64,000 nt of DNA, from the NCBI GenBank assembly GCA_937921305.1, contig CAKZSU010000003.1:116599-180598 (forward strand), read 5' to 3'. This document shows, piece by piece, positions 19,241 to 59,398 of the stretch. A program made the position numbers and the translations under genes. The notes under the pieces are model-generated. The model ran no database searches, had not been told where the DNA came from, and was given only the letters and a program-made list of their open reading frames with translations. The stretch's first letter is position 1; every line of letters starts with the position of its first letter. The DNA is from an uncultured Patescibacteria group bacterium (GTDB lineage Bacteria > Patescibacteriota > Microgenomatia > UBA10105 > UBA927).

Positions 19241-19276
19241 GAAGCAATTGTATCATTGTTTCGATATACTACGCAC

Positions 19277-23765: not shown

Positions 23766-25507
23766 TTGAATACCAATATTGAATCAGCAACAATAGTTTG
23801 TATCCGATCGGGATCATAACGAGGAAGTTGATAGTACCCGCATTGATACCAATTTGTTACGCTAATCGCCGTTATTGATTCGCCACGATGGTCAGGATAT
23901 CGAATCGTATGAAACGCGCAAATTTCATCATTTTTATAACTTCCCCACGCACGATCGCTCTCAAATCCGTATGCCGAGCCATCATCTCTTCCAAAATAAG
24001 AAAAATAAAGTTCGCTTGGCTTTGCTTTATCGATATACCGCTGAAATGAAATCAATCCTTGTCCCCAGTCGATATTGCTATCAAACAAATACCGATATCG
24101 TTTTGTTCGAGAAATAAAACTATTTGTGAATGAAATACTATGAGGATATGCCGTGTATAACGAATACCCCATCCATGCAATCATTCCAAACAGTAGCGCC
24201 ATTTTCCATTTCGATCGAACATCCTGGAACGGATACCCTGCGACAATCGCCAAAAACGGAAACGATGGCAAGATATACCGAATAAGCGGTTGCATGCGAA
24301 CAAAACTAACAACAAAAACGATCGCAAAAATAGGAATAAGGAAGAGATATCGATATTCAGGATCGCGAACTCGGTTGTCTCGAATTGTTAGTTTATATTC
24401 AGGAATATGACTCACCATCTCCGACGATTGTGACTGATTCTGCGACGGATATTTTCTTATAAAAACGGTTTGTATCATGGTTATCAACAAGGATCGATGA
24501 TTTTCAGAAAGCACCGTCATAAAAAAACCAAGAACACACAAAAGAATCAATGGAAACGGAAGTTTCACCAGAGCTGCCTGAAGCATCATAAGAGGATGCA
24601 CCGACGGATGAAACATCCCCATATGAAAAACCGGTTGAGATTCTCTTGCGCGCAACGCATTATTCTTGAGAATTCCGATATAGTCCCCAAGCGGAACAGG
24701 CGTCCCCTGCAACCAAAGAATTGCCTGTTTTAACAAATTCAGATTCCTTTCCTCGGCAAACGCAATGAGTCTATTCGACAACCGCTCGGGATTATCATGC
24801 GGAACAAGAATGGAAGTAAAACGAAAAAAATATGTGCTCCATACAATAAACCCCGCGACACATACCGCAAAGAAGAAATGTCTCACATGATATCTACACC
24901 ACGAAAACGACCACACATTACGTTTCAAAATCAACACAAAACACATGCTTGCAAATAAAAATGGCAATGCAGAAATTTTTGACGCCAATGCAAGTCCTAA
25001 AAAAATCCCGAAGAAAAAAAATTTTGTCATGGTCGGAGAGGAAAACGCGTCAAGAAATGAAACATACGCAAGAAATATGAAGAGCGTTGCCCCGATATCA
25101 GATGTAATGTAATGACTGTGCGCAAGAAATGTGGGCTCTAGCGCCAAGACTATGCCAGACGCAAGAGAAGACGCTTGACCGATATATCGTCGAGACGCTT
25201 CCATCACCTGCCATAAAAGGATTGACGCTAAAAATACAATAACCAAACGATTCAAAAGATATCGTTGAGAGGGTGTTCCTTCAGATGGCGTGAATCCAAG
25301 CACGGATGGAATTGACGCAAGTTCTCGTATAAGCGGAGGATTGTACGGTTCAATGGGAAACTCCTGTTTTGTAATATTTGTGAACCCTTCCTGAAGATTA
25401 AAAATTTCATCAAATGTCAATGATTCTTGAAGAGCGCTTCCTAATGTTGCTACGATAAACACTGCGACGATTCCCCATCGCAACAATCGATAGAGCGTAC
25501 TGCTCAT
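23762..25507 (-). CDS. GT-C fold glycosyltransferase (ArnT/PMT family-like)
   Basis: First extracytoplasmic loop contains TFDE (the DE motif typical of GT39/GT83). 581 aa, multi-TM. Confidence 0.5.
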   Translation of the reverse strand: MSSTLYRLLRWGIVAVFIVATLGSALQESLTFDEIFNLQEGFTNITKQEFPIEPYNPPLIRELASIPSVLGFTPSEGTPSQRYLLNRLVIVFLASILLWQVMEASRRYIGQASSLASGIVLALEPTFLAHSHYITSDIGATLFIFLAYVSFLDAFSSPTMTKFFFFGIFLGLALASKISALPFLFASMCFVLILKRNVWSFSWCRYHVRHFFFAVCVAGFIVWSTYFFRFTSILVPHDNPERLSNRLIAFAEERNLNLLKQAILWLQGTPVPLGDYIGILKNNALRARESQPVFHMGMFHPSVHPLMMLQAALVKLPFPLILLCVLGFFMTVLSENHRSLLITMIQTVFIRKYPSQNQSQSSEMVSHIPEYKLTIRDNRVRDPEYRYLFLIPIFAIVFVVSFVRMQPLIRYILPSFPFLAIVAGYPFQDVRSKWKMALLFGMIAWMGYSLYTAYPHSISFTNSFISRTKRYRYLFDSNIDWGQGLISFQRYIDKAKPSELYFSYFGRDDGSAYGFESDRAWGSYKNDEICAFHTIRYPDHRGESITAISVTNWYQCGYYQLPRYDPDRIQTIVADSILVFK

Positions 25508-26616
25508 AAAAACTTACTCCATACCTCCTCAATTTTTTTCGCGCCAATCATCTTGTCGTGATATCGCTCCGCTCTCGCCCTCGCTTTTTTGCCATAGGTT
25601 TCTCTCAATGTTGGATCATCCAATAATCGCCGCAATTGCTGGACAAGAGAATATGCATCGCCAGGATGAGCAAACAACGCGGCATCTCCCACATTTTCAG
25701 GTATTCCTCCGCTATATGTAGTAACAATCGGAAGACCGCTTGCCTGCGCTTCAAGAAGCGTAGTGTTGTATTGTTCCTGCCATGTTTGCGTTTCTTTGCT
25801 TGGCGCAACATAGATATCCGCGTTCGCATAAACCGTTGGCATATCCTCATATGAAGCGGTTTCATAAAACACACGATGTTCCACGCCCAGTCGTCTTGCC
25901 ATCGTTTGCAACCCGCGTTTTTGACTTCCTTCTCCAACAAGAGTAAGTGTGATATCGTATGTTTTTAATAGCAACGAAAACGCGTATAACAATTCATATA
26001 CGCCTTTATATCCTTCCAACCTTCCACAAAATAGAATGCGAATTGATCTATCATTTTTTTCTCTCTTCTTCGCGGGAGCAAAACGAGTTATATCGATAAA
26101 ATGTGGAATAACGGTAATGTTTTGTTCATCAACGCCTTCAAGGAGTAACGCTATCTTTGTCCGTTCCGTCAACGCAATAATATGATCAAGCTCTTGATAG
26201 GAACGTTTCTTAAACCTTTTTCTTCCCCAAATACCTTCATTGTTAAACGGAATATTTTCCAATACCGTGGCGATCACGCGTTTCACCCATCCTTTTCGTT
26301 TCGCGGATAAGCATTGCTGGGTATAGTGATAGTATGTTTCCGCCGTGTGAACAAGATCGAACCCTTTCAACGCGACTTCAAGTCCAAAAAGATACTGAGC
26401 GTCTATAAACAATCGATTGAGTATGGCCATTTTCTTTGGAAACTCTGGAAGATCCATAGGAGAAAGCAATTTTTTTACAGGAAAAGCAAATGTGTCATGA
26501 TACGAACGCATCGAACCAAACGCCGTAATGTCAAATCGATCAATCAACGGCTCAAAAAACTGCATTTCATACGCATTTAAAAATGTTCCTCGAACAATCG
26601 CCGCTTTCGGTTTCAT
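25504..26616 (-). CDS. family 4 glycosyltransferase (GT-B)
   Basis: EX7E-type C-terminal motif (LEAQASGLPIVTT...GGIPE) and GT4 architecture. Confidence 0.8.
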   Translation of the reverse strand: MKPKAAIVRGTFLNAYEMQFFEPLIDRFDITAFGSMRSYHDTFAFPVKKLLSPMDLPEFPKKMAILNRLFIDAQYLFGLEVALKGFDLVHTAETYYHYTQQCLSAKRKGWVKRVIATVLENIPFNNEGIWGRKRFKKRSYQELDHIIALTERTKIALLLEGVDEQNITVIPHFIDITRFAPAKKREKNDRSIRILFCGRLEGYKGVYELLYAFSLLLKTYDITLTLVGEGSQKRGLQTMARRLGVEHRVFYETASYEDMPTVYANADIYVAPSKETQTWQEQYNTTLLEAQASGLPIVTTYSGGIPENVGDAALFAHPGDAYSLVQQLRRLLDDPTLRETYGKKARARAERYHDKMIGAKKIEEVWSKFL

Positions 26617-27383
26617 ATCAGATTTCTATACAAAATACCGCTATATCTCGTCAACAACAATAACCGCATCCCACGATGAACAACAAGTTTTTTTACAATC
26701 CATGGCAAAGGCAAGGAATGAATCATATAGGCAACCGTTATCACGAACTTCTTAAGCCATACGCGGATATGATCAACAAGACTCGGATTTCCCGAAATCA
26801 CATAGAGAATGGATCCTGTGGCGCCGATATCCACAATATCGTTTCGTTTCCATATATATTGTCGTATCGTTCTCCATACACCGCATTCCCCGCAAAATCC
26901 ATCATGAAACGCGATAACGCCTCCATCGCGAGAGACAAATGGCGCCCACAACGAATAATCTTCAGTCGCATGACGTTCATCATGCAATCCATCGATAAAT
27001 AACAATCGTATTGTTCTTTTCCATTTCTTCGAGGCATCCCGAGATGTCATGACCAACGGTCGAACTATATCGGCAATACTAGCTCTTTCAATATTATCCT
27101 GAAACGCCTCAAATGTTCCGTTATCAACCGGATGATCGCCATCCTGAATAACCCCCTCGTGAGGATCTATCGCCCATATACATCCACCCTGTTTTCCGCG
27201 CTTCATTCCATACGCTAACGCGATCGTCGAACGTCCTTTATAACTGCCAATCTCCACAATATCTCCGGAAGCTGGAGCGCAACGAGCTAACTCATACAAT
27301 AGCATGGCTTCGCGAAGAGACAACCACCCGTCAACGGAAGAAAGCAACGCGCGCAACTCGCTTCTTGAGTACGGATCATTCAT
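26613..27383 (-). CDS. class I SAM-dependent methyltransferase (Methyltransf_24 / TylF-MycF-like)
   Basis: VEIGSYKGRSTIALA glycine-rich motif and downstream acidic residues, sitting between two GT4 genes. Confidence 0.6.
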   Translation of the reverse strand: MNDPYSRSELRALLSSVDGWLSLREAMLLYELARCAPASGDIVEIGSYKGRSTIALAYGMKRGKQGGCIWAIDPHEGVIQDGDHPVDNGTFEAFQDNIERASIADIVRPLVMTSRDASKKWKRTIRLLFIDGLHDERHATEDYSLWAPFVSRDGGVIAFHDGFCGECGVWRTIRQYIWKRNDIVDIGATGSILYVISGNPSLVDHIRVWLKKFVITVAYMIHSLPLPWIVKKLVVHRGMRLLLLTRYSGILYRNLI

Positions 27384-28470
27384 GACGCAACATCTCCGTT
27401 ATGACTCCATATACAATCTCGCTAAAACGTTTCCACGAAAATTCCGACGCCTTCGCCAAACCGCTTGCGATAGAAACATTCCGCAATGAATCATTTGTTA
27501 TGATATCAGTCATCGCTTGCGCTAACGCATGAATGTCATTAGGCTCAACGAGCATATGCTGTTCTGGAATAATCTCTGGAAACACCGCTGATTTTGTCGC
27601 GACAACAGGACATCCGCACGCCATTGCCTCCATAACAGGCAGACAAAACCCCTCCGTAAGAGACGCCGTGACAAACGCGGACGCGCCGCGATAATAATGA
27701 GACAAAAGGTTATCCGGCACATATCCAAGAAATCGAACATAATATTCCATACCCTCTTGTTGTATCGTTTGAAAAATTTCTTTATCCATCCAATAATCTC
27801 CACCAATGATCAGCAAAAGATATCGTTTGTTGGAGCGTTTCAAGAACTCATGAAACGCGCGAATCACCACAGGAATATTTTTCCCGGGCTTCAAACTACC
27901 AACATGCAAAAAATACGGCAACGTTCCTTGAAACGCTTTTCCATCTCGAGAAAATCGCTCATCAACACCGGGATAGGCGACAGTAATCTTTTCTGATTGA
28001 ACATGATACATCTGACAAATATCCTGTTTTGTTGTCTCTGATATAGTGATAATGTGATCGGATCGATGAATCAACTCCTTCGTTCTTTTAGCAAGATGAT
28101 GATACGAATGTGGATATGCGCTGGGATAATGCAAGAATCCTAGATCATAAATAAATCCAATATTGGTTTGGAATCCTACCGGAACAGCTTGTGAAACACC
28201 CAAGAAAAGATCGACAGGATGAATCAATAAACTCAACGGAAGACGAACCTGAAACCATCCTTTTTGAGGTTTCAAGACAAAAGATGCCATGTTCGAAGAC
28301 AGTGTTTTCATAATATTATCGCTAATCGGAGCGAACGAATACAGCCGATAGTCATTCATCTCATCCAAAGACGATAACCCTTGAAACAAGCGAAGAATCA
28401 CGCGATACACGCCAACTTTCAATCGGTCGTCTTGAACACATAGCGCACCGGCGTCAACACCAATCGTCAT
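27376..28470 (-). CDS. family 4 glycosyltransferase (GT-B)
   Basis: GT4 C-terminal domain: FVTASLTEGFCLPVMEAMACGCPVVAT. Confidence 0.8.
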   Translation of the reverse strand: MTIGVDAGALCVQDDRLKVGVYRVILRLFQGLSSLDEMNDYRLYSFAPISDNIMKTLSSNMASFVLKPQKGWFQVRLPLSLLIHPVDLFLGVSQAVPVGFQTNIGFIYDLGFLHYPSAYPHSYHHLAKRTKELIHRSDHIITISETTKQDICQMYHVQSEKITVAYPGVDERFSRDGKAFQGTLPYFLHVGSLKPGKNIPVVIRAFHEFLKRSNKRYLLLIIGGDYWMDKEIFQTIQQEGMEYYVRFLGYVPDNLLSHYYRGASAFVTASLTEGFCLPVMEAMACGCPVVATKSAVFPEIIPEQHMLVEPNDIHALAQAMTDIITNDSLRNVSIASGLAKASEFSWKRFSEIVYGVITEMLRHE

Positions 28471-28723
28471 ATATACTCATGAAATACTGAACGCGACTAG
28501 ATGTCAATGTACGATCAATCCTCGCATCATAATCATATTGTTATCTCAAGCTCTTGAACATGTCATCTGTCATCATTTTTCCCATCCTAAATTTTCCTTC
28601 GTGCTATCCTGAACCTGTTTCAAAATCTAAAGAATAATGAAGAAAATATAGTTTCCGAACATTTGTAAAATACTGAAATAAGTTCAGTATGATAAATACT
28701 GATATAAACAAAGGAGCAATCTG

Positions 28724-29503
28724 TCAAGCAGAATACGGATGCCTCCCAAATCTTCTGAGAAGATAATCACGAATCCCCGCCAACGCTCCCCATTCTCTCA
28801 GAGTTACATGCTCAAGAATTGTTTTTGGAAAACGAAGCGTCTCATATATTTTCACAGAAAACGGAGCATTTCGTTCAATAAACAGCAAGTGATTTCTTGC
28901 AAGATAGTATTGATGAAGAAATGGCTTGTTTTGAAATGTCGACGACTCTTTGTGACGGACATCAGACAAGGGAACAACATGAAGAGGAAACCCCTTCTTT
29001 CTTGCTCTTATACAATACTCAACTTCTTCATAAAAAATAAAATAGGGATCATACAAATAGCCAATTGAACTAATAACATCTCGATGAATCGCAAGAAATG
29101 AACCTGACAAAAATTGCATAGGCTCTGGATCTGTTTCCGCCGTCCATCGTTTTGGATCCAATGATCGAGGATATGAACCGGCAAGACCAGGAGAACATCG
29201 AGAAAGAAACTGAATAAATGAATGAACAACATGTTTCGTCATCTGCACATCATCATTCAAGACAACCATCCATTCATATTTATGCGTGTACACATATCTT
29301 AATCCGCGATTTACTCCTCCTGTGTACCCCTTATTCTCTTTATTGGGAAGATAGATCACATGGTCAATCGAGATAGTTTTTTTTGGTGTGTTATCAACAA
29401 GAATAACCGTATGTGGACACAACGAATCGACCAACGATCGAATCTTTGCTTGATCAGGAAAATAGGTGAGGATGATAAACGCTATATCAAGTGATGTTTC
29501 CAT
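28724..29503 (-). CDS. family 2 glycosyltransferase
   Basis: The internal ATG (METSLDIAFIILTYFPD...) fits a GT2 N-terminus; the longer listed ORF overlaps the epimerase. The C-terminal part is typical GT2. Confidence 0.7.
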   Translation of the reverse strand: METSLDIAFIILTYFPDQAKIRSLVDSLCPHTVILVDNTPKKTISIDHVIYLPNKENKGYTGGVNRGLRYVYTHKYEWMVVLNDDVQMTKHVVHSFIQFLSRCSPGLAGSYPRSLDPKRWTAETDPEPMQFLSGSFLAIHRDVISSIGYLYDPYFIFYEEVEYCIRARKKGFPLHVVPLSDVRHKESSTFQNKPFLHQYYLARNHLLFIERNAPFSVKIYETLRFPKTILEHVTLREWGALAGIRDYLLRRFGRHPYSA

Positions 29504-30498
29504 GTTTCCGGAACTAAATCGTTTTCCAACTCCAACGGAATATATGAGAATAACTTTGGTCCTTGCGTTTTTACCCATGCGATTGTTTCCCGTATGCCGT
29601 CTGTTAATGAAGTCGAAGGACGATAGCCAAGCATCATTCTTGCTTTTGTGATATCGCAATACGCGGAGACAATTTCTCTCGGACGAAACGGAACATACAC
29701 AGGTTCAAATTCCTTAGGAACATCTCCGTCAAACCATGACGAGAGGATCAATAAAGAAAGTTCGTTTAATGTATGCGGCTTGTCTGATCCAATATTAAAC
29801 ACTTCTTGTTTATATTCATCAGATAATCCAGCTTTCACGACGGGAGGAATAAGATCATAAATGTAGGTAAACGCTCGTTTTTGGGCTCCATCTCCATAAA
29901 TGTAATATGGCTTTCCTTGAGATAATCGATTTAGAAAAATCGCAACAACATTTCTATAAGGATCGCTCATGTTTTGCCGTGGACCGTAAACATTATAAGG
30001 ACGAATAATTACATAGGAGAACCCATGAACAGTTGACAATATCCGCGTAACATCCTCCATTGAAGATTTCATCACACCATACACATCTTCCGGTCGTTTC
30101 TCCATCTTTTCTGAAAATGGCGGTGTTTGCGCGCCATAAACGCTGATACTGCTAAATAGAATTACTTTTTGGATACCATGTTTTACACAGGGAACAAGCG
30201 TGTAAAGATATGCTAAATAATTATTTTCAGATGATGATAATGGGGTAAATTGACTTCTTCCTTCAGTCGCATCTGCAGCGAGATGAAAAAGAATCTCTGG
30301 TTTAACTTGTTGTATATAAGTAGCGACAGCATCTTTATTTCTCAAATCAAGATTTGTAAATCGACATTCTTTGTGAATATACGTTTCTTGTCCTCCCGAA
30401 AGATTGTCCACGCCGTATACTTCATCATGATTCGCGATAAGCGCGTCGACGAGATGACTGCCTATAAACCCCGCCGCACCAGTAACAAGAATTTTCAT
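29482..30498 (-). CDS. NAD-dependent nucleotide-sugar epimerase/dehydratase (SDR family)
   Basis: MKILVTGAAGFIGSHLVDAL Rossmann motif and a YxxxK-type SDR core. Confidence 0.85.
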   Translation of the reverse strand: MKILVTGAAGFIGSHLVDALIANHDEVYGVDNLSGGQETYIHKECRFTNLDLRNKDAVATYIQQVKPEILFHLAADATEGRSQFTPLSSSENNYLAYLYTLVPCVKHGIQKVILFSSISVYGAQTPPFSEKMEKRPEDVYGVMKSSMEDVTRILSTVHGFSYVIIRPYNVYGPRQNMSDPYRNVVAIFLNRLSQGKPYYIYGDGAQKRAFTYIYDLIPPVVKAGLSDEYKQEVFNIGSDKPHTLNELSLLILSSWFDGDVPKEFEPVYVPFRPREIVSAYCDITKARMMLGYRPSTSLTDGIRETIAWVKTQGPKLFSYIPLELENDLVPETWKHHLI

Positions 30499-30529
30499 AT
30501 TATTTTTTTAATTTTACTAATATAATGAA

Positions 30530-31336
30530 TCATTTTATAAAGTTTCTATGTATTATTTTAAAAAAAGCAAAGAAATAAATCGAAGATATATATAAAGAGA
30601 AAATAACATGAGCCCTAAAACCTGCCCAACCATCAAGAAAACCTTTACCCCTGAAATAACCACTAAAAAATAGTGAAATGAATTTCGTTAATCCTAAGTA
30701 AAGAAGCCTTAATAAATTAACTTCTTTTTTTGCTAATTCATCTCCTTCAATTTGAATATAAGTTAAAAAATTTTTAAAGTCTAAAAATCTTGCATACTTG
30801 GAGTTTCTTGAAAAATGCAGTATATCTAAGTTTTTATATGCTGTTAGATTATCGGGAATATCTATATGAGGATGTATTGGATTATAGAAATAATAACCTA
30901 TATTTTGAAATAGTCTTAATTGAAAATCTGGATAAAATAAACCATATCTAAAATACTTGCCTTTTCTATAATAATTTCTTCTTGAAAACCAATAACCTAA
31001 TATATTATTGTTTTTTATTAATTTAGGAGTTTCTTTTATTAAATCTTCACTCAATGACTCATCTGAGTCTAAAAAAAATATCCAGTTATACTTCGCATTC
31101 TTCAATCCAATATTTCTTAATTCAGAGTGATTTAATTTAGTATCAACCTTTATTATTCTTATTTTAGAGTTACTTTTTAAATTTGATGATAATATTCCTA
31201 TAGTACCTAAGCTTTGAACTATTATTATTTCACTACAGAAATTCATAAGAGATTTTATTGAATTTTCAGTTAAAAGATCATACACGTGAGTAATAATTAT
31301 TCCTGTTATTTTTTTTTCATGAATTTTTTTATACAT
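30530..31336 (-). CDS. family 2 glycosyltransferase in a strongly AT-rich segment
   Basis: GT2-like N-terminal half (IIITHVYDL...FFLDSDES). Local GC is far below the window average. Confidence 0.6.
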   Translation of the reverse strand: MYKKIHEKKITGIIITHVYDLLTENSIKSLMNFCSEIIIVQSLGTIGILSSNLKSNSKIRIIKVDTKLNHSELRNIGLKNAKYNWIFFLDSDESLSEDLIKETPKLIKNNNILGYWFSRRNYYRKGKYFRYGLFYPDFQLRLFQNIGYYFYNPIHPHIDIPDNLTAYKNLDILHFSRNSKYARFLDFKNFLTYIQIEGDELAKKEVNLLRLLYLGLTKFISLFFSGYFRGKGFLDGWAGFRAHVIFSLYISSIYFFAFFKIIHRNFIK

Positions 31337-42079: not shown

Positions 42080-42345
42080 TTTTACCTCCTTATCAATGCG
42101 ATTCAATACTATATACTTTAAACGCGTATCACAAAAAAGCCGCTCTCCTTTTTGCGAAGGACGAGCGGACACACTCGTGGTACCACCTTGCTTCGTTTTA
42201 CCGAAAGATATAGTAAAACCTCATTGTATAGCTATTACGGGCATACCCGTCAGGGTCTACTCTCCTTCTCGGATTTCTTCCTGAGGCTCGTTCCGTGATT
42301 GCGGAACTCAAACGCCGTTATTTTTTTGTATATTTACACTATACC
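42080..42345 (-). promoter_or_regulatory. T-box riboswitch leader of ileS
   Basis: On the minus strand there is a T-box sequence AAGGUGGUACCACGAG (plus 42174-42195). It is immediately followed by a terminator hairpin and U6 (plus 42133-42168). An upstream Stem-I-like region holds GGAGAGUAG and an AUC triplet (GAAAUCCGAG) as candidate Ile specifier. Confidence 0.6.
42133..42168 (-). terminator. T-box attenuator terminator (intrinsic) upstream of ileS
   Basis: RNA: CCGCUC G UCCUU CGCAAA AAGGA GAGCGG followed by CUUUUUU. The 5' arm can alternatively pair with the T-box sequence as an antiterminator. Confidence 0.55.
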
Positions 42346-42828
42346 ACATCCTTTCCATATTCGTCTATCCCATCAATCATTTCTATCAAGGATATTGAGT
42401 TGATTATCTTACTCTTTGCTTCACTTTGCAAAAAATTTTTTGTTTAAATCTTTCTTTTGATTCAAAACATACTTTCATAAAAATGTACAATACAAGAAAT
42501 CTCAATAGAGTATCGCGTGAATTATTTCGTTATTTATTGCAACTCATGCATGAGAAATCACTTACTTTAAATAGTAGATATCATTATAGCTAGGTAAGCT
42601 ATTCTTAAAATCATTCTTCACTCAATTGAGCGATAAAAATCGATTGAATTCGATCAATAAGTTCTTGAAACGAATATCGTTGAATAATAAACACAAATCA
42701 ATACAATCTTTCCATTCTCCTTCTTGCTGAATCAAGAAAGGAGAGTTCATCGTTTAAATTATTAAAAAATCTCGCATTACTTGTAAAACTTTGTGAAGAA
42801 CAAAAAAATGAATACTAAAAAGAAAAGT

Positions 42829-45800
42829 TTATTCTCTGACAAAGAGTATAAAAAACAACGAAACAGGGAGCAATCCAAATCCTATCCACTGCAACAATTG
42901 CGGAAGAAAAAATAAAATGATTGTTCTTTGCTTTGAAGAGGGCGAAAGCTCCCACCCATTCGCCCAATTATTGACAAGCACATGATTTCGTAACGGTTTT
43001 CCAAAAAGAAACGGAATCATCCTCCCCAACGATGAATCAATTTCATATGCTTTCCATCCCGAGTGAAATGATTGATATAACGCAAGAATTCCTTTCTCCT
43101 CTTGCGGAACGAGAGAAACAACATAATATGTTGGATAAGGATGAAATACATCAGGGGCAACAAATGTATGAGGAACAAATTCTCTCTTTTCTTCTTTTTG
43201 CACCATCAAACCCATCATCCATAAATAAGGGATTTGATGAACAACAACACGATGCAATTCATTTCTTGTTTGCTCATTACCAATAGAAAGATTATCAAAG
43301 TTAATCGTATATCCAAAGCTATATGGTTCTTGCGGTGGGATCACAAAGTGATTCGTAAAAATATCTTTTGCTGATTGAGGTTCTAAATAGGTGTCATAGA
43401 GCAATCGTTTTGTTTGGTGATTTGTAATTGAGATAATCAACGGTAAATTTTCTATATGCTTTGAATCAACAGTAACCACATATCCCTGTCGTTGCAGAAG
43501 AAATGGAAGAAAAAAATCAATACAATTGCTTGAATGAAGACTCGTTAGCGTAAGAACATTTCGTTGTTTCTCTTTTCTTACCTCTTGCATCTTTACTCCA
43601 TCATTAAATGCATCGCATGTTTTCGGTTCTCGAATAAAATTATTCCACGCGTCGCTATTGTAGCTATACAATCCATATACTTTCGGCACATGAACAACAA
43701 TCCGATCACTCAATCCATCGATAAGCATCGTCGCTCCTTTTGTTGCAGTGTCAAAAGAAAGATCAATCACTTTCTCACCATAGACAATACGAGGAAAAGA
43801 ACGATACGTAATTCTATCGTCATCAATCGTAAGCAATGAATCATGATCAAATGGAGGAATCGTCATCACCCCACGAATATCCTTTGAAAGAGATGCTGAA
43901 AATTCGTAACCCTGATCATATTCTTGAATAGTTATCATTCGATCTTGAATCATTTTCCCAGTGAACAAAGAACGAAATGGAAAATATATATCTGGATAAC
44001 CTGTCGATGTTTTATATGGACCAATCATCTCAAACGCCTTATCGATATCCATCGTAATCGCTTTTGGCTGAACTTCCGGAAGTGAAGTAACAAAAGAAAC
44101 ATGCTGATTTGCGCGTTCAGGTCGAACAATACGATAGATATGAATCGATCCAAAGACGCTCTGCTTCTCAAAACGATCATCTTTCACATCTCCATTCAAC
44201 AATTTCTCAAGTGTGAACGATCCAGATTCTTTATCGTGTAACACGATGTTTGTATCTATGAGTAGCCAATCAATCGCGTATTTCCGCAACACTCCATGAA
44301 ATCGATCAATCGAACCCTCCGCCAACGCTTGCGTGCTTTCCCAATAAAAATTTTCGTTATGATAACTCCACGGATCGAATGCGCGATCCATAATCGGCTG
44401 AGGAATACCAAACCATTGAAACCCAGACCCGATCACCCCCCAGCGATACTGCGTCCACGCCCAATACCAAGGAGCTGGAAAAACAGCAATGCGTTGATCA
44501 TATCGTTGCTCTTGAAAAAAACGAAACATATCAAAATATTCCCGAGGAATCGCTACACGAAGATTGCTATGTAAAAAGTGTCCTTGAAACGATGGAAGTG
44601 TTAAAAGGAAAAGTAACACGCTAACAACTGCATGAGCAGCAACAACTATTAATTTTCTTTTTTCAATAAACTGAAAGAAAAACAACAATCCAATTCCAAA
44701 CAACAACGAGAATACCAAACTATACGAGATAAAAAATTTTGTATATACAAATCGAAAGATAATATGAACAAGAGGAAACAACGATCGAATCGCAGTATTT
44801 GCTTGCTCAATCAACGGGATATTATTCCCAATAACAAATAAACTAATAAAAAACCAAAGAACAAGAGGAACACCAGAACTTTGTCGCTTAATCACAACGC
44901 TACCTATCCCTACTATAACAATGCCAAAAACTATCCATCCAATCGGTTCATACCATATCTGAGATAGATGCTCCCGCCATGGCTTCATCATGTAATCAAC
45001 TACTCCTGTAGTATGATCAAGCTGCACAAACTCCAAACTAAAACTCTTTAACAGCGCAAAACTTCTCACATCTCCATATTCATGATTTTTTAAATAAATC
45101 TCATGACTTGCTCGCTGATTATTTTTCGAATTTGCAATGATATGGGCGTTATGTATTGTAGAAGCAATATACGGAAGCCCCCAAAACGCATTTGCAAAAC
45201 ATATTAAGAATATACTGACGAAAACTGGCTTTGGAGATCGTTTTGCTGAAATATGATGAAAAAGGAATACAAAAACAAACATGGTATATACAATAAACAC
45301 TGTTGGGACATGCGCCATCGGCGTAGCAAGAAATGATATAAGAAGAAAGAAAAACGACCGCTTCACGGAAATACGATCCAACAAAAGCGCAAGCCCAAAC
45401 AAAAGCCAAGGCAACCATCCAAAATAAGCGATAAACGGCTCAAAAGGAAGATAAAACATCTGCACAGTTGCAAAATTATATTGATATACTAACGCTGATA
45501 ATGCACCAACAGACCGAACAAATTCTTTTTGTGGATGATTTCGAAATAAAAAAGAGAAAAGAATATAGACTCCTATCCCACCAAATGCATGCATGGAAAA
45601 AATAAAGACATATCGAAGGAGATGGTGGGGGAAAAATAGGGACAACAAAAATATATAAACATAATGAACAACATTTGCAGCGTGCGACATTCCATCCTCT
45701 AAACCAAGTCCTCGATACTCTTGCCAAACACTGGTCAACGCACGAATGATATTAAGGGAAAAATGAAATTCAGGAAAATTATTATCCCACCCAACAACAT

Positions 45801-45915
45801 ATGTTCCGGAAAGATAGTTCTGAACAAATAGCGTGAGGCTTAAAAAGATGATAATAAAAAAAGGGCAATACCGAATAATTACCCTCTGAAGAAATCTCTT
45901 CATCAATTTAAGCAT
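42829..45915 (-). CDS. 1028-aa polytopic membrane protein with large extracytoplasmic C-terminal domain (GT-C-like glycosyltransferase candidate)
   Basis: ~13 N-terminal TM helices (~450 aa) followed by a ~550-aa soluble domain. ATG start. The adjacent GT2 gene supports a glycan-assembly role. Confidence 0.4.
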   Translation of the reverse strand: MLKLMKRFLQRVIIRYCPFFIIIFLSLTLFVQNYLSGTYVVGWDNNFPEFHFSLNIIRALTSVWQEYRGLGLEDGMSHAANVVHYVYIFLLSLFFPHHLLRYVFIFSMHAFGGIGVYILFSFLFRNHPQKEFVRSVGALSALVYQYNFATVQMFYLPFEPFIAYFGWLPWLLFGLALLLDRISVKRSFFFLLISFLATPMAHVPTVFIVYTMFVFVFLFHHISAKRSPKPVFVSIFLICFANAFWGLPYIASTIHNAHIIANSKNNQRASHEIYLKNHEYGDVRSFALLKSFSLEFVQLDHTTGVVDYMMKPWREHLSQIWYEPIGWIVFGIVIVGIGSVVIKRQSSGVPLVLWFFISLFVIGNNIPLIEQANTAIRSLFPLVHIIFRFVYTKFFISYSLVFSLLFGIGLLFFFQFIEKRKLIVVAAHAVVSVLLFLLTLPSFQGHFLHSNLRVAIPREYFDMFRFFQEQRYDQRIAVFPAPWYWAWTQYRWGVIGSGFQWFGIPQPIMDRAFDPWSYHNENFYWESTQALAEGSIDRFHGVLRKYAIDWLLIDTNIVLHDKESGSFTLEKLLNGDVKDDRFEKQSVFGSIHIYRIVRPERANQHVSFVTSLPEVQPKAITMDIDKAFEMIGPYKTSTGYPDIYFPFRSLFTGKMIQDRMITIQEYDQGYEFSASLSKDIRGVMTIPPFDHDSLLTIDDDRITYRSFPRIVYGEKVIDLSFDTATKGATMLIDGLSDRIVVHVPKVYGLYSYNSDAWNNFIREPKTCDAFNDGVKMQEVRKEKQRNVLTLTSLHSSNCIDFFLPFLLQRQGYVVTVDSKHIENLPLIISITNHQTKRLLYDTYLEPQSAKDIFTNHFVIPPQEPYSFGYTINFDNLSIGNEQTRNELHRVVVHQIPYLWMMGLMVQKEEKREFVPHTFVAPDVFHPYPTYYVVSLVPQEEKGILALYQSFHSGWKAYEIDSSLGRMIPFLFGKPLRNHVLVNNWANGWELSPSSKQRTIILFFLPQLLQWIGFGLLPVSLFFILFVRE

Positions 45916-45927
45916 AGCACAGATTTC

Positions 45928-46845
45928 TTATGACTTCTGAACAAGAAACGCGAGAGAACGATGTTCATGGTTCCAAAGTTTCCATTTTATAAGAGACGTC
46001 TTTGCCATTCCGCGAAGAAAAAGATATATTGGAACAATCAATTGTTCCGGCAATAAACCGACAATGACGCATTGAACGGCAAGCACTATCCATGCACGCA
46101 AGGACATCCGATACTGAAATTTTTGTATCGCGGAAAGTCTAATTCGGACAGAGTTCCAAAACTTCTTTTTTGGTTCTTGTAGCGAAGCATTTTTACCGTG
46201 GACGCGATACGCGATCAATTTCTCGGGTAGATTATGAAACAATCCGATGTGAAGAAACCTAAAAAATGTGTAGTAATCGTCGTTCACATCCCAAACCATT
46301 TCATAAATTTTTCTTTTCCGTGGAAGAAACGATCGGCGAATCATCACCGACGGATGAACAATCGGGTGAAGAATACCATACTGTTCATAAATCGCGTCAT
46401 GGTTGATTGGAAATCGTTTTTCCCCAATAATTGTTCCATTTTTATCGATAATATCCGCTTGTGTTCCTAAAACAAATACATCCGGATGGCTCGTCATGTA
46501 GGTTACTTGTCGCTCGATGCGTTCCGGGTAGGATACATCGTCCGCATCCATCCTTGCGATAAACTCGCCTCGAGCAAATTGAACGCCATAGTTCATTGCG
46601 CCGTTGCCCGCGGCGTTTGTTATTCGCTTTGTACGAACCGCGCGAATTTTTTTAGGAAATCGTCTCGCGTAGTCTTGAAGAATCTCCCACGACCGATCTG
46701 TCGAACGATCATCAACGAGAATAATCTCTACATTTGGATATGTTTGACGCAAGAGACTGTCAATAGCTTCCGCGACATACGCTTCTGCGTTATGCACCGG
46801 CATAATCACAGAAACAAGCGGTAATATATTTGTAATAGTTTTCAT
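45928..46845 (-). CDS. family 2 glycosyltransferase with C-terminal TM segment
   Basis: VSVIMPVHNAEAYVAEAIDSLL...ILVDDRSTD...ARMDADD. The ATG at 46845 is preferred over the listed TTG. Confidence 0.8.
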   Translation of the reverse strand: MKTITNILPLVSVIMPVHNAEAYVAEAIDSLLRQTYPNVEIILVDDRSTDRSWEILQDYARRFPKKIRAVRTKRITNAAGNGAMNYGVQFARGEFIARMDADDVSYPERIERQVTYMTSHPDVFVLGTQADIIDKNGTIIGEKRFPINHDAIYEQYGILHPIVHPSVMIRRSFLPRKRKIYEMVWDVNDDYYTFFRFLHIGLFHNLPEKLIAYRVHGKNASLQEPKKKFWNSVRIRLSAIQKFQYRMSLRAWIVLAVQCVIVGLLPEQLIVPIYLFLRGMAKTSLIKWKLWNHEHRSLAFLVQKS

Positions 46846-47039
46846 ACTATATATGTCATACAAACTTTTACTATTTCCTCCATATTCAACGCATTGAATA
46901 CAGAGGAAAAACGAGAACGCAAAAAGAAGAAGACAACAAAAAAAACGTAGATCCTATGCAGCATAGAGCATAGGCACGTCTTCCATTTGCTTCTCTTGCT
47001 TACGTTTTTCCACAATAACGACCGGGAAGTCACTGTACT

Positions 47040-47099
47040 GCCTTATCTGCAGACGCGGATATCGATATTTTTATCGAAACCCACTGCGCTTTATCGCAG
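47040..47099 (+). repeat. left copy of an imperfect direct repeat bounding the GC-rich island
   Basis: GCCTTATCTGC...GCGCTTTATCGCAG. It matches the right copy GCCTTATCTGCGCTTTGCAG (48751-48770) apart from a 35-nt internal insertion with its own small palindrome. Confidence 0.35.
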
Positions 47100-47146
47100 A
47101 ATATTCAGCCTTGGTGACTCCCAGCCGCGTTTGCTATGATGCTACC

Positions 47147-47836
47147 CTATTCGGGCAGCTTCGCGAAGGAGAATCCGGATGCGTTGCCGCGGTTGCAGCG
47201 GACAAAGATCCACGATTCGCCCTTTCCGAGCGTCTCTTCGACGCGGAGCGATAGAATGTTTGCTCGATCAACGAGCAACGTGCCGGTGTCGAAGGGGTGC
47301 TTCCCATCGTAGTTGTGAAACACCATGCACTCAGGGCCCACAAATCTGTAATGCCCTGGATGCAATGTTAGAGCAACCTCATGCGCCTCCCTACCTGGGA
47401 AGGGGAGGCACGGCTGGTACCACCAGCCGTTCGGCTGCAAGTCAGAATAGCCGGACTGCAACGGGTCGTAAACGACCAGATAGTCATTGTGGCCATTGAC
47501 CCCGTTGACCGTCGCGTAAAACACCTGCCCCCCATTAAGGACAGGTACGACCCTGCCGTTCGAGCAGGTTACCTGCCGCGTCGGCTCCGCCACGTTGGGG
47601 GTGGTAGGTTCGGGAGTAGCCGTGACCACCACAACGTTGGGCGTTGTAGGTTCGGGAGTAGCCGTGACCACCACAACGTTGGGCGTGAGGGTGGGGTTAG
47701 GCAGGGTAGGGGTGGAAATGGCGCTCTGCGCCATCTCGCCGATGGTCTGCCCCTGCTGGAACTGAGGCGAGCAAGCAGCGACTACAAGCACTGCTACCAT
47801 ACAAACCAGGAAAACCAGGATTCGTGTGGGTTTCAT
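47147..47836 (-). CDS. lipoprotein with tandem Pro/Thr-rich repeat and Cys/Trp/Gly-rich C-terminal domain (GC-rich island)
   Basis: RBS GGAGAGGGG then ATG (MKPTRILVFLVCMVAVLVVAAC with a VAAC lipobox). Two 14-aa repeats (TPNVVVVTATPEPT). No known domain. GC is well above the window average. Confidence 0.6.
   Translation of the reverse strand: MKPTRILVFLVCMVAVLVVAACSPQFQQGQTIGEMAQSAISTPTLPNPTLTPNVVVVTATPEPTTPNVVVVTATPEPTTPNVAEPTRQVTCSNGRVVPVLNGGQVFYATVNGVNGHNDYLVVYDPLQSGYSDLQPNGWWYQPCLPFPGREAHEVALTLHPGHYRFVGPECMVFHNYDGKHPFDTGTLLVDRANILSLRVEETLGKGESWIFVRCNRGNASGFSFAKLPE
47604..47687. repeat. 42-bp tandem direct repeat (2 copies plus partial) inside the lipoprotein gene
   Basis: GTAGGTTCGGGAGTAGCCGTGACCACCACAACGTTGGGCGTT at 47604-47645, repeated at 47646-47687. 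Confidence 0.7.
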
Positions 47837-47859
47837 TTTTCCCCTCTCCTTATACTTAC

Positions 47860-48351
47860 TCATGGATTAGACTGTGATTGCGCTTGATTGTGAGTGCTAT
47901 GGTCGCCCTTCTTCTTTGAAAGAGCAACCAAATAGACGATGCCCACCAGCACAAAACCGACGCAGATATTAACGAGTTGTTGAAGAGTCAGCGTCGGTAC
48001 GACAAACATGATAAAACCCGCCATCGCCAATACGGCAATGACGAGTTTGCCAAAGTTCTCGCTCTTCACGAGCGACAGCCTCATACTCTCTGGAATAAAC
48101 CAGGCGAGGATAGCAAACATAGCTCCTCCCCCAAGGACAAGTCCCCACCACGGGTTAGAGGCAACTACTTGCGATGCGTAGAGCGAAAGCAGAGCGGAGC
48201 CAGCAGCAAACTCAGACTTACTGAGGAGCTGTATAGCTTTCTGATCAGTCAACCCTCGGATGAGGTATCCGAGGAATGCCATAACCCCAATGATGGTATA
48301 GATCCACCATTGGGTAGTGAGGTAGTTCATCCACTGCTCGATCATGACCAA
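47860..48351 (-). CDS. hypothetical 4-TM membrane protein (GC-rich island)
   Basis: 163 aa with four hydrophobic helices. Its stop overlaps the upstream region of the lipoprotein gene. Confidence 0.5.
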   Translation of the reverse strand: MVMIEQWMNYLTTQWWIYTIIGVMAFLGYLIRGLTDQKAIQLLSKSEFAAGSALLSLYASQVVASNPWWGLVLGGGAMFAILAWFIPESMRLSLVKSENFGKLVIAVLAMAGFIMFVVPTLTLQQLVNICVGFVLVGIVYLVALSKKKGDHSTHNQAQSQSNP

Positions 48352-56881: not shown

Positions 56882-57871
56882 TTAATATCCCTTCTTTATC
56901 CTTCGGATGGCTTCAATGCATCGAGGGATACAATAAAAAGGAGATACCGGATAATCCTGTGCGTGAAGATATCGACTCTCCTCTCCTCCGAACCCTTGCT
57001 TAAATAGCGTAATTCCTTTCCATGGATGAGAGACAGATTCGCTTGGCGCGACACCCCAGAAATTATAGAGTTTCATACCTCGACGCTTCGATTCCTGAAT
57101 CGCGATCCACTGAATAAGATGCGCGCCAGACGGCGACCCTCGCAACGAGGCGCCGTAATGATAGATTGCCTGTCCGCCAAAAAATAATATGATCGCCGAA
57201 GCGATAACTCGTCCTTCGTATTCCGCGTAATACAAAACCGCGTGATCGTTCCGAGAAAATACATCAAATTCTTCTTGAATACCTTTATGCGGAACGAATC
57301 CTTGTCGTTTTGCTGTTTCTTTATAGAGAGCAAAAAACTGCGAAAGATCGTCGGACCTATAGACGCGGACACCCATCCGTTCTGCTTTTTTTATTTCATA
57401 TCTCGTGGTTTTTCTCATCTGCGAAAAGATCGCATCAAGCGGAGAATCCAACGGCAATACCCAGCAGACTTCCGCATCCATCGCATGAATGGCCGCAGGC
57501 TTATATCCTGCCGAAGCAAACGATTGTTGAAAAGATTCAGGAATTAACGGATTGACACGAAAAAATAACACATGCTCCTGTTTTGCGCGGATCTTCATAA
57601 ACTCCGTAAATGAAGAAATTGTCTCTTCCGTATATTCTTTAAGAACAGGTCCATGACGAATATGGAGAAACGATCCGCGTCTCGCAAGAACTTTGACAAC
57701 CTGAAATATACCAACACACTCTTTTCTTTTCCACATGCCATATCGCTGTACAGAATCTCCTGTCTTTTCCAAAACCTCTCCCCACTCCCACGACTGAAAT
57801 AATGCGTGAGAAGCAAAACGAAACAACACATCGTCCCACTGTTTGTTATGAGTAATTAGTTCAATGTTCAT
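56882..57871 (-). CDS. FemAB-family aminoacyl-tRNA-dependent peptidoglycan interpeptide-bridge transferase
   Basis: ~330 aa with a double GNAT-like fold and FemAB/FemX-like segments (ALFQSWEWGEVLE..., GQAIYHYGASL...). Confidence 0.7.
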   Translation of the reverse strand: MNIELITHNKQWDDVLFRFASHALFQSWEWGEVLEKTGDSVQRYGMWKRKECVGIFQVVKVLARRGSFLHIRHGPVLKEYTEETISSFTEFMKIRAKQEHVLFFRVNPLIPESFQQSFASAGYKPAAIHAMDAEVCWVLPLDSPLDAIFSQMRKTTRYEIKKAERMGVRVYRSDDLSQFFALYKETAKRQGFVPHKGIQEEFDVFSRNDHAVLYYAEYEGRVIASAIILFFGGQAIYHYGASLRGSPSGAHLIQWIAIQESKRRGMKLYNFWGVAPSESVSHPWKGITLFKQGFGGEESRYLHAQDYPVSPFYCIPRCIEAIRRIKKGY

Positions 57872-58205
57872 GCGTCAATCCGCGAAGAATAATCGAAAAT
57901 ATCGTCATTAGAATTGATCCGGCAAGCGCTGTCCCGATTCCATCCACAGAAAATCCCGGGGTAATCGCACTTGCAAGCAGCAAGATCAGCGCATTGATCA
58001 CAAAAAGAAACACTCCCAATGTGATCATTGTCACTGGAAGGGTGAAAAGAACAAGAATCGGCTTTACCAATACATTAAGGAATCCAATGACGCCGCTTGC
58101 AAGCACTGCTTGCAAAAAACTATCAACATGAATCTGTGGCAGAAGCATCGCGACAAGATACAATGAAAGCGAATGAATCCCCCATGTCAAAACAAGCGAT
58201 TTCAT
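57861..58205 (-). CDS. DUF360 / phage-holin-4-2 family small membrane protein
   Basis: 114 aa, four TM helices and an LP...TLG.FLFVINALIL pattern. Confidence 0.5.
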   Translation of the reverse strand: MKSLVLTWGIHSLSLYLVAMLLPQIHVDSFLQAVLASGVIGFLNVLVKPILVLFTLPVTMITLGVFLFVINALILLLASAITPGFSVDGIGTALAGSILMTIFSIILRGLTHEH

Positions 58206-59398
58206 ACGATTGATTCTATCACGCGCATAACTTTCTTTGCTTCCGATTGCGTAACGCGCATTGGAAGATTCACAATTTTTTTACAGTATGCTTCTGCATT
58301 CGGGCAAGATCCAAGAACATACCCAGCAGCGGAAAGATCAACGCCTTTTGGATCTATTGGCGTTACATACCATCGGCCAAGCAAGACGCCGCGAGCTTTC
58401 GCTTTTCGGATAAGGTCATCCGGATTATCAACAAATATCGGATACCGAAGATATATCGCATCGCTGTAATCTGATCTTTTTCTATATATATTTGCGGCCA
58501 TTCTTCGCATGGCTTGAAATCGCGGAAGTTTTTTGATCTGATGAAGGGCGAGCGCTGTCAACGCGTGTGGATACTTCTGAGGAAATATACCCGGATTGCC
58601 ACCTTCCTTTTCCTCGCGATACACAGGAAATGAAAGCCACCCAAGTTTTTGAAACGCCACAAGTAGAACCTTTCCTATCCCTATCGTGTACCATGGCAAA
58701 ATCAACGCAAAGGCGATTGGATGAAAAAGTTGTTGCGCAATCCATCTATATGATGGATATGCCAATGTTTTGTATTGCTTTTCTAATCGTTGAAACGCTT
58801 CGGAATCTCGAATAATCGCCGCTCCGCCAAACACGCTAGAAATCACTTTGTCTCTTCCAAAGCTAAAAAATGCTGCGTCTCCCCACGATCCAAGCATTTT
58901 CCCTCTGTACGATACGCCAAGCGCGTGAGCGCAATCTTCGATCACGAGAATGCTATGCTTTCTTGCAAATGCCACTATTTCGTCTATCTTTGCCGGAACT
59001 CCGAATGTGTGCTGAACGATAATCGCTTTTGTTTTCTCGGAGATCTTCTTTCTAATTGTTTCAACCGTCAAATTTAGCGTGTCATCAATATCGGCGTACA
59101 CCGGTGTCGCGCCTGTCCACAAAACGCTATTCGGCACCGCGACACAGGTAAACGCTTGAACAATCACTTCATCGCCCTTCTTAACACCAAACGCCCGCAA
59201 TATTTCATACTCCGCAGATCTGCCACTGTTATAAAACAGTATATGATCTGTGCTATATTGACGAGTAAACCATGTTTTTAGCGTTTGCTCCGCGTCTCCT
59301 GTCCTCCACCGCCATGGCGTCAACATCATGCGGATCGCTAAGACAATATCGTCAATTTCTGTGTTTGGAGAAAGAGATGGAGAGATTGGATGAAACAT
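58202..59398 (-). CDS. DegT/DnrJ/EryC1/StrS family PLP-dependent nucleotide-sugar aminotransferase
   Basis: The N-terminus ISPSLSPNTEIDDIVLAI aligns with the family's IPLSRP...E..AV start. The lysine-region motif FSFGRDKVISS is present. Confidence 0.8.
   Translation of the reverse strand: MFHPISPSLSPNTEIDDIVLAIRMMLTPWRWRTGDAEQTLKTWFTRQYSTDHILFYNSGRSAEYEILRAFGVKKGDEVIVQAFTCVAVPNSVLWTGATPVYADIDDTLNLTVETIRKKISEKTKAIIVQHTFGVPAKIDEIVAFARKHSILVIEDCAHALGVSYRGKMLGSWGDAAFFSFGRDKVISSVFGGAAIIRDSEAFQRLEKQYKTLAYPSYRWIAQQLFHPIAFALILPWYTIGIGKVLLVAFQKLGWLSFPVYREEKEGGNPGIFPQKYPHALTALALHQIKKLPRFQAMRRMAANIYRKRSDYSDAIYLRYPIFVDNPDDLIRKAKARGVLLGRWYVTPIDPKGVDLSAAGYVLGSCPNAEAYCKKIVNLPMRVTQSEAKKVMRVIESIV

Follow-up and report, generated by a model that had tools for sequence, protein, structure and literature searches.

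Introduction

Arabinofuranosyltransferase D (AftD) of Mycobacteroides abscessus and Mycobacterium tuberculosis (PDB 6W98, 6WBX and 6WBY; Pfam PF11847, formerly DUF3367) has a core of 11 transmembrane (TM) helices with two juxtamembrane helices (TM1-TM2), a broken TM3 and a TM7 that projects out; beyond this core, the chain forms a soluble alpha/beta domain and beta-sandwich modules and returns into the membrane (bioRxiv 10.1101/2019.12.22.885152). AftD transfers arabinofuranose from decaprenyl-phospho-arabinose (DPA) and binds acyl carrier protein, its beta-sandwich modules bind glycans, and GT-C glycosyltransferases with carbohydrate-binding modules (CBMs) are already known in AftD, EmbC and GT136. 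Adjacent genes for a GT-A-fold and a GT-C-fold glycosyltransferase (GT), such as CsbB/YfhO, YkoT/YkoS, YkcC/YkcB and CsdA/B, are a recognised and widespread module (PMC8035078), which glycosylates teichoic acids, wall polysaccharides and O-antigens outside the cell (PMC8035078, PMC11127046). In the present study, a gene pair resembling such modules was analysed in a 64,000-nt stretch of DNA from an uncultured Patescibacteria group bacterium (GenBank assembly GCA_937921305.1, contig CAKZSU010000003.1, positions 116,599 to 180,598 of the forward strand), hereafter called the window. The pair consists of a gene for a 1028-aa membrane protein of predicted GT-C fold and AftD-like architecture (42829..45915, minus strand) and, directly before it, a gene for a family 2 glycosyltransferase (GT2) of GT-A fold (45928..46845, minus strand).

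Our best reading, to which we assign a probability of roughly 0.55, is that the GT2 extends a lipid-linked glycan inside the cell and the AftD-like GT-C enzyme elaborates it outside. What is new is a large unannotated family within a known superfamily and with a known type of architecture. As judged from its sequence, the partner GT2 appears to be of another type than the GT-A enzyme of the textbook three-component system.

Results

The 1028-aa protein is a predicted GT-C glycosyltransferase of AftD-like architecture

The 1028-aa open reading frame (ORF) and the GT2 ORF directly before it were both present as described in the initial annotation. A word-indexed search with the large protein returned 138 homologs at E<=1e-3, an exhaustive search returned 1,691 50%-identity representatives at E<=1e-30, and 208 stretches of a species-representative genome collection encode a relative; the ORF is therefore a genuine gene, as opposed to a reading frame open by chance. 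All named homologs come from Microgenomates-group Patescibacteria (Gottesman-, Roizman-, Levy-, Woese- and Shapirobacteria). Family members are named 'hypothetical protein' in the databases, mostly without a Pfam domain, and a literature search found no paper on this family or on AftD-like enzymes in Patescibacteria. The initial annotation had considered the pair not to be a standard element of Gram-positive wall synthesis. This view was not borne out, since such pairs are well known (PMC8035078); moreover, the Gram-positive frame is only loosely applicable because the named homologs belong to Microgenomates-group Patescibacteria and not to the classical Gram-positives. Many records of metagenome-assembled genomes that carry the gene pair (loci L002, L003, L008 and others) are titled 'uncultured Gammaproteobacteria', 'Pseudomonadales' or 'Planctomycetales', and these titles look like placeholder or mis-assigned taxonomy.

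A 48-sequence family alignment was used as input to AlphaFold2, and the resulting model of the 1028-aa protein had a pLDDT of 90.9 and a pTM of 0.90. When the model was searched against the PDB with Foldseek, the three AftD entries ranked first (E 3.8e-18 to 2.7e-15), followed by STT3 at 2e-6 and then by AftA, AglB and PglB. All of the top structural matches were GT-C glycosyltransferases, with no transporter or other non-GT fold among them, so that the kind of match by which the initial annotation would have been overturned did not arise in this search. The AftD match included the external beta-sandwich region, in agreement with the AftD-like GT-C enzyme proposed at the outset.

The topology was derived from hydropathy, the secondary structure of the AlphaFold2 model and the distribution of Lys and Arg residues in the loops. 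The N-terminus lies inside the cell, Lys and Arg are concentrated in the predicted cytoplasmic loops, and the chain has 12 TM helices, 11 of them in aa 1-444 and one at the C-terminus (aa 1006-1025), with an extracytoplasmic region at aa 445-1003. The large polytopic layout of the initial annotation was thus retained; its count of about 13 TM helices was not, and its 550-aa external domain measures 559 aa. The 11-TM catalytic core (aa 1-444) is encoded by 44584..45915, and within it the first extracytoplasmic loop (EL1, aa 34-96), which holds two juxtamembrane helices and is the candidate catalytic loop, by 45628..45816. The extracytoplasmic domain is encoded by 42907..44583 and begins with an alpha/beta 'soluble GT-C' domain (residues ~445-600), after which come three beta-sandwich modules, one or more of which are CBM-like. 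The C-terminal TM anchor (aa 1004-1028), equivalent to TM12 of AftD, occupies 42829..42906 together with the stop codon; all four segments lie on the minus strand.

The model repeats the layout of AftD in its 11-TM core, juxtamembrane helices, broken TM3, extended TM7, alpha/beta domain, CBM-like or other beta-sandwich modules and single TM helix at the position of TM12. The window protein differs from AftD in that the identity is 11-15% and the chain is about 300-400 aa shorter; the TM13-16 bundle of AftD has no counterpart, since the window protein ends at residue 1028 after one TM helix. The host also differs, being a Patescibacterium, and no genes of the arabinogalactan or DPA pathway were found among the window ORFs that were scanned with Pfam, which are a part of all ORFs. 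Furthermore, a large external domain of the GT-C enzyme, proposed to bind the wall polymer, is a feature shared with the multi-component systems reviewed in PMC8035078. The oligosaccharyltransferases PglB, AglB and STT3, which work with a PglI-type GT2, are more distant: the window protein has no WWDYG motif, its external domain consists of CBM-like sandwiches, and their Foldseek E-value is 12 orders of magnitude weaker than that of AftD.

On the AlphaFold2 model, the 1028-aa protein has a multi-helix core in the GT-C arrangement (GT-C_A-type fold) with an extracytoplasmic domain, and a long EL1 that contains juxtamembrane helices as well as a conserved acidic residue of putative catalytic function. 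We assign it, as a model-based prediction, to the GT-C superfamily with AftD-like architecture. It was not filed under the AftD family because the sequence link is marginal, with no match to PF11847 and no AftD chain reached by HMMER. The window protein itself gave no Pfam match at E<=0.1 and no NCBIfam match. Among the 48 homologs, 10 matched PF11847 (GT-C_AftD) at E<=1, and three distant homologs passed the 26-bit gathering score (35.2, 29.4 and 26.2 bits), with matches limited to profile positions 265-544, the second half of the core.

Conserved residues point to a putative active site in EL1

EL1 is the best-conserved segment of the family, with a mean frequency of the major residue of 0.68 compared to 0.34-0.54 elsewhere, and in the model it forms helices at aa 52-60 and 76-91. 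The residues G42-W43-D44 and W64-Q65-x-Y67-R68 are invariant in the 48 sequences (codon of D44, 45784-45786), and E49 and D74 are conserved in at least 90% of them; the conservation of acidic loop motifs was a check proposed in the initial annotation. R388 and K393 are invariant in the same alignment and belong to a set of invariant or near-invariant polar residues (E159, N277, R388, K393, R475, E521 and D554) situated at the outer helix ends or in the alpha/beta domain. The conserved residues D44, E159, R388, K393, E521 and D554 lie at the predicted outer face, and the sequence searches yielded no alignment of these residues to AftD. In characterised GT-C enzymes, the catalytic Asp sits in the first external loop, and D41 of AftD is one of its five essential residues (K39, D41, E251, K361 and D474). 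By analogy with the position of this Asp in other GT-C enzymes, D44 is the putative catalytic Asp of the family.

These residues also bear on the reading that the 1028-aa protein is not a glycosyltransferase at all, but a transporter, a structural membrane protein or an inactive GT-C relic. The absence of any Pfam or NCBIfam match, and the finding of nothing by sequence profiles in the PDB, would fit such a protein. However, the top structural matches are all GT-C enzymes without a transporter among them, conservation is highest in the putative catalytic loop with its invariant Asp, and glycosyltransferase genes consistently accompany the gene; we regard this reading as extremely improbable. 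Two narrower assignments were rejected. The regular expression WW[DE][YWF]G, used for oligosaccharyltransferase membership, was found in 0/48 members, and the YfhO model PF09586 was matched by 0/48 members at E<=1. The PMT_2 models likewise had 0/48 matches at this threshold, and in both respects the family differs from the CsbB/YfhO systems.

The partner GT2 resembles enzymes that act on glycan acceptors

The mechanical call of the GT2 ORF began at a TTG (45928..46863, minus strand). An ATG at 46845, the start used in the initial annotation, fits the called protein P0121 of 305 aa and the N-termini of orthologs, and the gene was thus taken as 45928..46845, encoding a 305-aa SpsA/EpsE/K4CP-like enzyme. 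The protein matched PF00535 with an E-value of 2.5e-37 (128.8 bits; cut-off, 23.3). In NCBIfam, the best models were EpsE (1e-35, nearly full length) and TuaG, compared to ArnC at 3e-9 and PgfS at 8e-8; all of these equivalog scores are far below the model cut-offs, and no specific orthology is claimed.

A profile of 42 GT2 orthologs was searched against the PDB sequences. It matched the chondroitin synthase K4CP at 6e-37 (residues 4-242), SpsA at 4e-23 (residues 7-208) and TarS at 1e-20 (residues 10-212). The matches to polyprenyl-phosphate glycosyltransferases covered residues ~8-120 and were much weaker, with DPMS at 5.5e-10, ArnC at 4.5e-9 and GtrB at 4e-6. The comparison of structures gave a similar order: the nearest were K4CP (25.2), GalT1 (24.7), a PglI-like glucosyltransferase (23.8, with 246 residues aligned) and SpsA (22.5), followed by TarP (22.1), TarS (20.3) and GlfT2 (18.1), and the lowest were ArnC (16.2), DPMS (16.0) and GtrB (15.8).

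The DADD sequence at aa 100-103 (46537..46548, minus strand), found in the translation and in the 42 orthologs, is the DXD motif for metal and nucleotide sugar. Its residues D100, D102 and D103 are invariant in the orthologs, as is D190, and N188 and D189 occur in at least 90% of them. The enzyme thus shows the features of an SpsA/EpsE-like inverting GT2: it passes the PF00535 cut-off, carries a DXD motif and has an acidic residue conserved in its acceptor half. Translation, model and hydropathy further identified a hydrophobic helix-Pro-helix segment at aa 249-277 (46015..46101, minus strand), in which helices 249-264 and 267-277 (16 and 11 residues in the model) flank the invariant P266. This segment is probably a monotopic or re-entrant membrane anchor; the two-TM hairpin of the GtrB/ArnC type is unlikely because the helices are too short.

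The initial annotation held that the GT2 charges polyprenyl phosphate with a monosaccharide, which after flipping would be the donor of the GT-C enzyme, as in the CsbB/GtcA/YfhO or GtrB/GtrA/GtrV systems. The sequence comparisons argue against it, with E-values of 6e-37 to 1e-20 over ~200-240 aa for the glycan-acceptor enzymes against 5.5e-10 to 4e-6 over ~110 aa for the polyprenyl-phosphate enzymes; the best NCBIfam models and the short hydrophobic helices point in the same direction. In its favour, the GT2 does have a hydrophobic C-terminal membrane segment. On these comparisons, the GT2 is probably not the donor synthase. It appears to be a GT-A enzyme of the glycan-acceptor type held at the cytoplasmic face, not recognisable as a polyprenyl-phosphate sugar synthase, and in this respect the pair differs from the CsbB, GtrB, DPM1 and ArnC systems.

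The gene pair is conserved across genomes

The stop codon of the GT2 gene is separated from the ATG of the GT-C gene by 12 nt (45916..45927, minus strand). Such spacing would imply co-transcription or translational coupling, and the two genes look like a two-gene operon on the minus strand. On the 5' side, the GT2 is preceded by a 283-nt spacer with a hairpin and a T-run. By eye, the region 46846..47146 (minus strand) contains this hairpin and T-run and then a GGAGG; it is probably an operon boundary with the terminator of the upstream gene, followed by a promoter and a ribosome-binding site. A scan for promoter consensus sequences in the region upstream of the GT2 gave matches that were not above chance.

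Co-occurrence was assessed at 80 loci from species-representative genomes. A GT2 ortholog was defined by 33-60% identity and at least 150 bits, and was counted as directly upstream when its end lay within 300 nt on the same strand. By this definition, it was directly upstream of the GT-C gene at 57/80 loci, while at 10/80 more it was within 2.5 kb with one gene between; the remaining 13/80 were without it. The gaps in the orthologous pairs were mostly -43 to +40 nt, and the association of the two genes is thus strongly conserved. Two variants were seen, one with a second EpsE/TuaG-like GT2 directly downstream (~14/80 loci) and one with an additional polytopic protein of ~565 aa inserted (7/80 loci).

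Eight loci (L048, L050, L055, L057, L058, L065, L067 and L073) belong to a sister subfamily with a longer GT-C protein (1254-1283 aa in seven of the eight), and their gene order is a DPM1/PgfS/ArnC-like GT2 of 263 aa, a GT4 and then the GT-C gene. The 263-aa GT2 has as its best matches PgfS (3.9e-20), ArnC (5.5e-14 over the whole catalytic domain) and PpgS, and by these matches it appears to be a true DPM1-type synthase. Since the sister GT-C is linked to a GT2 of this type, there is indirect evidence that polyprenyl-phosphate monosaccharides are the donors of the shared catalytic core. The sister arrangement, a textbook linkage to a donor synthase that the window pair does not have, also shows the form such a synthase takes in this lineage, and the window GT2 is not of that form. 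A tblastn search with the DPM1-like GT2 of L055 found none in the 64-kb window; such a gene was present only at the eight loci of the longer subfamily. The Pgf machinery of Streptococcus mutans consists of the GT2 PgfS and the membrane glycosyltransferases PgfM1 and PgfM2. The sister GT2 of these eight genomes resembles it in having PgfS as its best NCBIfam match, far below the cut-off, whereas the window GT2 matches PgfS at only 8e-8, which is also far below the cut-off.

The adjacency of co-oriented GT-A and GT-C genes is what the pair has in common with CsbB/GtcA/YfhO, GtlA/GtlB and GtrB/GtrA/GtrV. Being tight, conserved and on the same strand, it favours a GT2 that makes the donor, as do the commonness of GT-A/GT-C gene pairs and the link of the sister GT-C subfamily to a true DPM1/PgfS-like GT2. 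On the other hand, that sister GT2 is of another type than the window GT2, the window holds no DPM1-like enzyme, and, as a difference from the GtrABV systems, no GtrA-type flippase was detected in the neighbourhood. Taken together, we consider it unlikely that the window GT2 synthesizes the donor.

As for a flippase, flippase genes are frequently unlinked to the GT-A/GT-C pair (PMC8035078). A nearby 163-aa membrane protein had no match to GtrA, and there was no conserved small polytopic neighbour among the 80 loci. One small conserved neighbour (cluster c19) was considered as a candidate and dismissed as a single-TM secreted protein. The representatives of the neighbouring polytopic clusters c15 and c95 had no Pfam match in a scan that did not extend to cluster c70.

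Pro/Thr-rich genes are enriched upstream of the GT2

Next to the window pair, on its upstream side, lies a gene (47147..47863, minus strand; GC content 0.58) for a lipoprotein-like 238-aa protein with a signal sequence, a lipobox and a tandem Pro/Thr-rich PNVVVVTATPEPTT repeat. It is given here as context, its membership in the system being uncertain, and its product is a possible acceptor or a possible unrelated neighbour. With a Pro/Thr-rich stretch defined as at least 40% P+T in 30 aa, the ORF directly 5' of the GT2 was Pro/Thr-rich in 26/68 genomes compared to 62/789 other local ORFs (odds ratio 7.3, p 8.5e-11). In 19/68 upstream ORFs and in 47/789 others, such a stretch was combined with a signal-like N-terminus. 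One upstream family with a common C-terminal domain of ~130 aa is present at 25 loci or more (at least 25, a conservative count from round 0, which was used because the later HMM rounds of this c12/c24/c30 family were maybe contaminated by low-complexity linkers). The window lipoprotein was tried as a member of this commonest upstream family and rejected: the iterated HMM gave it only bias-driven scores, and it belongs to a different family.

These observations raise the alternative that the GT-C enzyme glycosylates the Pro/Thr-rich linkers of secreted proteins or lipoproteins, for example the product of the upstream gene. It could transfer single sugars, as PMT or Pgf enzymes do, or act en bloc from a polyprenyl-PP-oligosaccharide partly built by the PglI-like GT2. 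Besides the enrichment and the repeat-bearing lipoprotein of the window, the PgfS match of the sister GT2 speaks for this alternative. However, the WWDYG-type motif is absent from all 48 members, there is no MIR domain, and AftD, the structure matched best and over the greatest length, binds glycans with its beta-sandwich modules. Moreover, the upstream Pro/Thr-rich genes come from several unrelated families, so the association may just reflect a neighbourhood of surface-protein genes. A strain variant, L083 (Logan ERR9287890), has a GT2 and a GT-C identical to those of L081 and L082 and lacks the Pro/Thr-rich lipoprotein gene, which is gone from between the gene of a 161-aa membrane protein and the GT2; one strain variant thus keeps the pair without it. 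Protein glycosylation therewith appears doubtful as the function of the pair, and the Pro/Thr-rich association is a lead for it, not evidence for it. The more specific proposal, a dedicated O-glycosylation system for Pro/Thr-rich linkers of Microgenomates surface proteins and lipoproteins, seems quite improbable. If it were true, an AftD-shaped enzyme would be a protein glycosyltransferase, and its substrates would be marked by gene position, about 7-fold enriched upstream.

Genomic neighbourhood and other glycan genes of the window

Among the window ORFs, the pair is flanked on one side by a dcw block with MraY, FtsW, MurG, FtsA and FtsZ and on the other side by IleRS and RodA. Directly 5' of the IleRS gene, a T-box-leader-like RNA was detected at 42154-42321 (minus strand; 52.5 bits, E 1.7e-10; gathering score 93). 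It overlaps the mechanical GTG start of IleRS at 42172, and the true start is probably further downstream. Between the GT-C stop codon and the T-box lies a 507-nt spacer (42322-42828) of 27% GC, whose ORFs do not exceed 62 aa and which gave no significant match in Rfam (best E 0.31, far below gathering). The MraY-FtsW-MurG block is adjoined by genes for a FemAB-family protein (56882-57871, minus strand) and a DegT/DnrJ-type sugar aminotransferase (58202-59398, minus strand), which points to modification of peptidoglycan cross-bridges or of amino sugars in this Patescibacterium.

The window contains a second, larger cluster of glycan genes at 17334-31336. This cluster encodes a Wzy_C/O-antigen-ligase-like protein, three GT2s, two PMT_2-type GT-C proteins, two GT4s, a methyltransferase, an NAD-dependent epimerase/dehydratase and an unannotated 622-aa ORF. 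The other GT2s of the window are GmaR/SunS-like, rhamnosyltransferase-like or unclassifiable. One of them (18500-19240) resembles GmaR (2.3e-20), the flagellin glycosyltransferase of Listeria, and SunS-type peptide glycosyltransferases. Another (30530-31336, minus strand) has a GC content of 0.237 compared to 0.414 for the window, matches nothing in NCBIfam and hardly anything among the PDB sequences, and may have been acquired horizontally.

Discussion

We propose that the gene pair works at the two faces of the cytoplasmic membrane of a Microgenomates-type bacterium. At the inner face, the GT2, an inverting and DXD-dependent enzyme, would extend a lipid-linked glycan from an NDP-sugar. After export of the glycan, the CBM-like modules of the GT-C enzyme would hold the polymeric acceptor at the outer face, while its final TM helix anchors the C-terminus, and the enzyme would add a sugar whose polyprenyl-phosphate-linked donor, of the kind expected by analogy with other GT-C enzymes, is produced by genes elsewhere in the genome. 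The acceptor would be a cell-surface glycoconjugate. The analysis shows the folds, conserved residues, topology, operon structure and synteny of the pair; what the donor and the acceptor are, and in which order the two enzymes act, is inferred. This order would parallel GlfT2 followed by Aft/Emb in mycobacterial arabinogalactan synthesis, in which the cytoplasmic GT2s GlfT1 and GlfT2 precede the GT-C enzymes AftA/B/C/D and Emb. The analogy is confined to the logic of the pathway: genes for galactofuranose or arabinofuranose were not identified here, and the two window genes share one operon.

Several observations weigh against this proposal. The tight and conserved coupling of a membrane-anchored GT2 gene with a GT-C gene exactly resembles the pairs of donor synthase and GT-C enzyme. 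With no DPM1-like synthase in the 64-kb window, the donor pathway is locally unaccounted for, and the Pfam scans, which covered a part of the window ORFs, found no GtrA-type flippase. Furthermore, when PDB sequences were searched with HMMER, the full family profile reached neither AftD nor any other GT-C chain; the same was true for the most AftD-like homolog (P0101) and for an N-terminal sub-profile of the eight most AftD-like members. The proposed link of the 1028-aa protein to AftD thus comes from structure prediction and from marginal Pfam matches in relatives, and the correspondence of D44 and the other conserved residues to K39, D41, E251, K361 and D474 of AftD is putative.

The analysis gives a large unannotated family a fold-level label, that of a GT-C enzyme of AftD-like architecture. 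If a member were characterised biochemically, it would probably become the founder of a new GT family in CAZy, following the example of GT136 (PMC11127046). A caution for annotation also follows, that a GT2 beside a GT-C gene is not automatically the synthase of a lipid-sugar donor. The gene pair is a conserved and so far unannotated cell-surface glycosylation module and not a new kind of system. The envelopes of the uncultivated Microgenomates have hardly been characterised, and the conservation of an external glycosyltransferase equipped with carbohydrate-binding modules implies that these bacteria carry an undescribed surface glycopolymer or glycoprotein.

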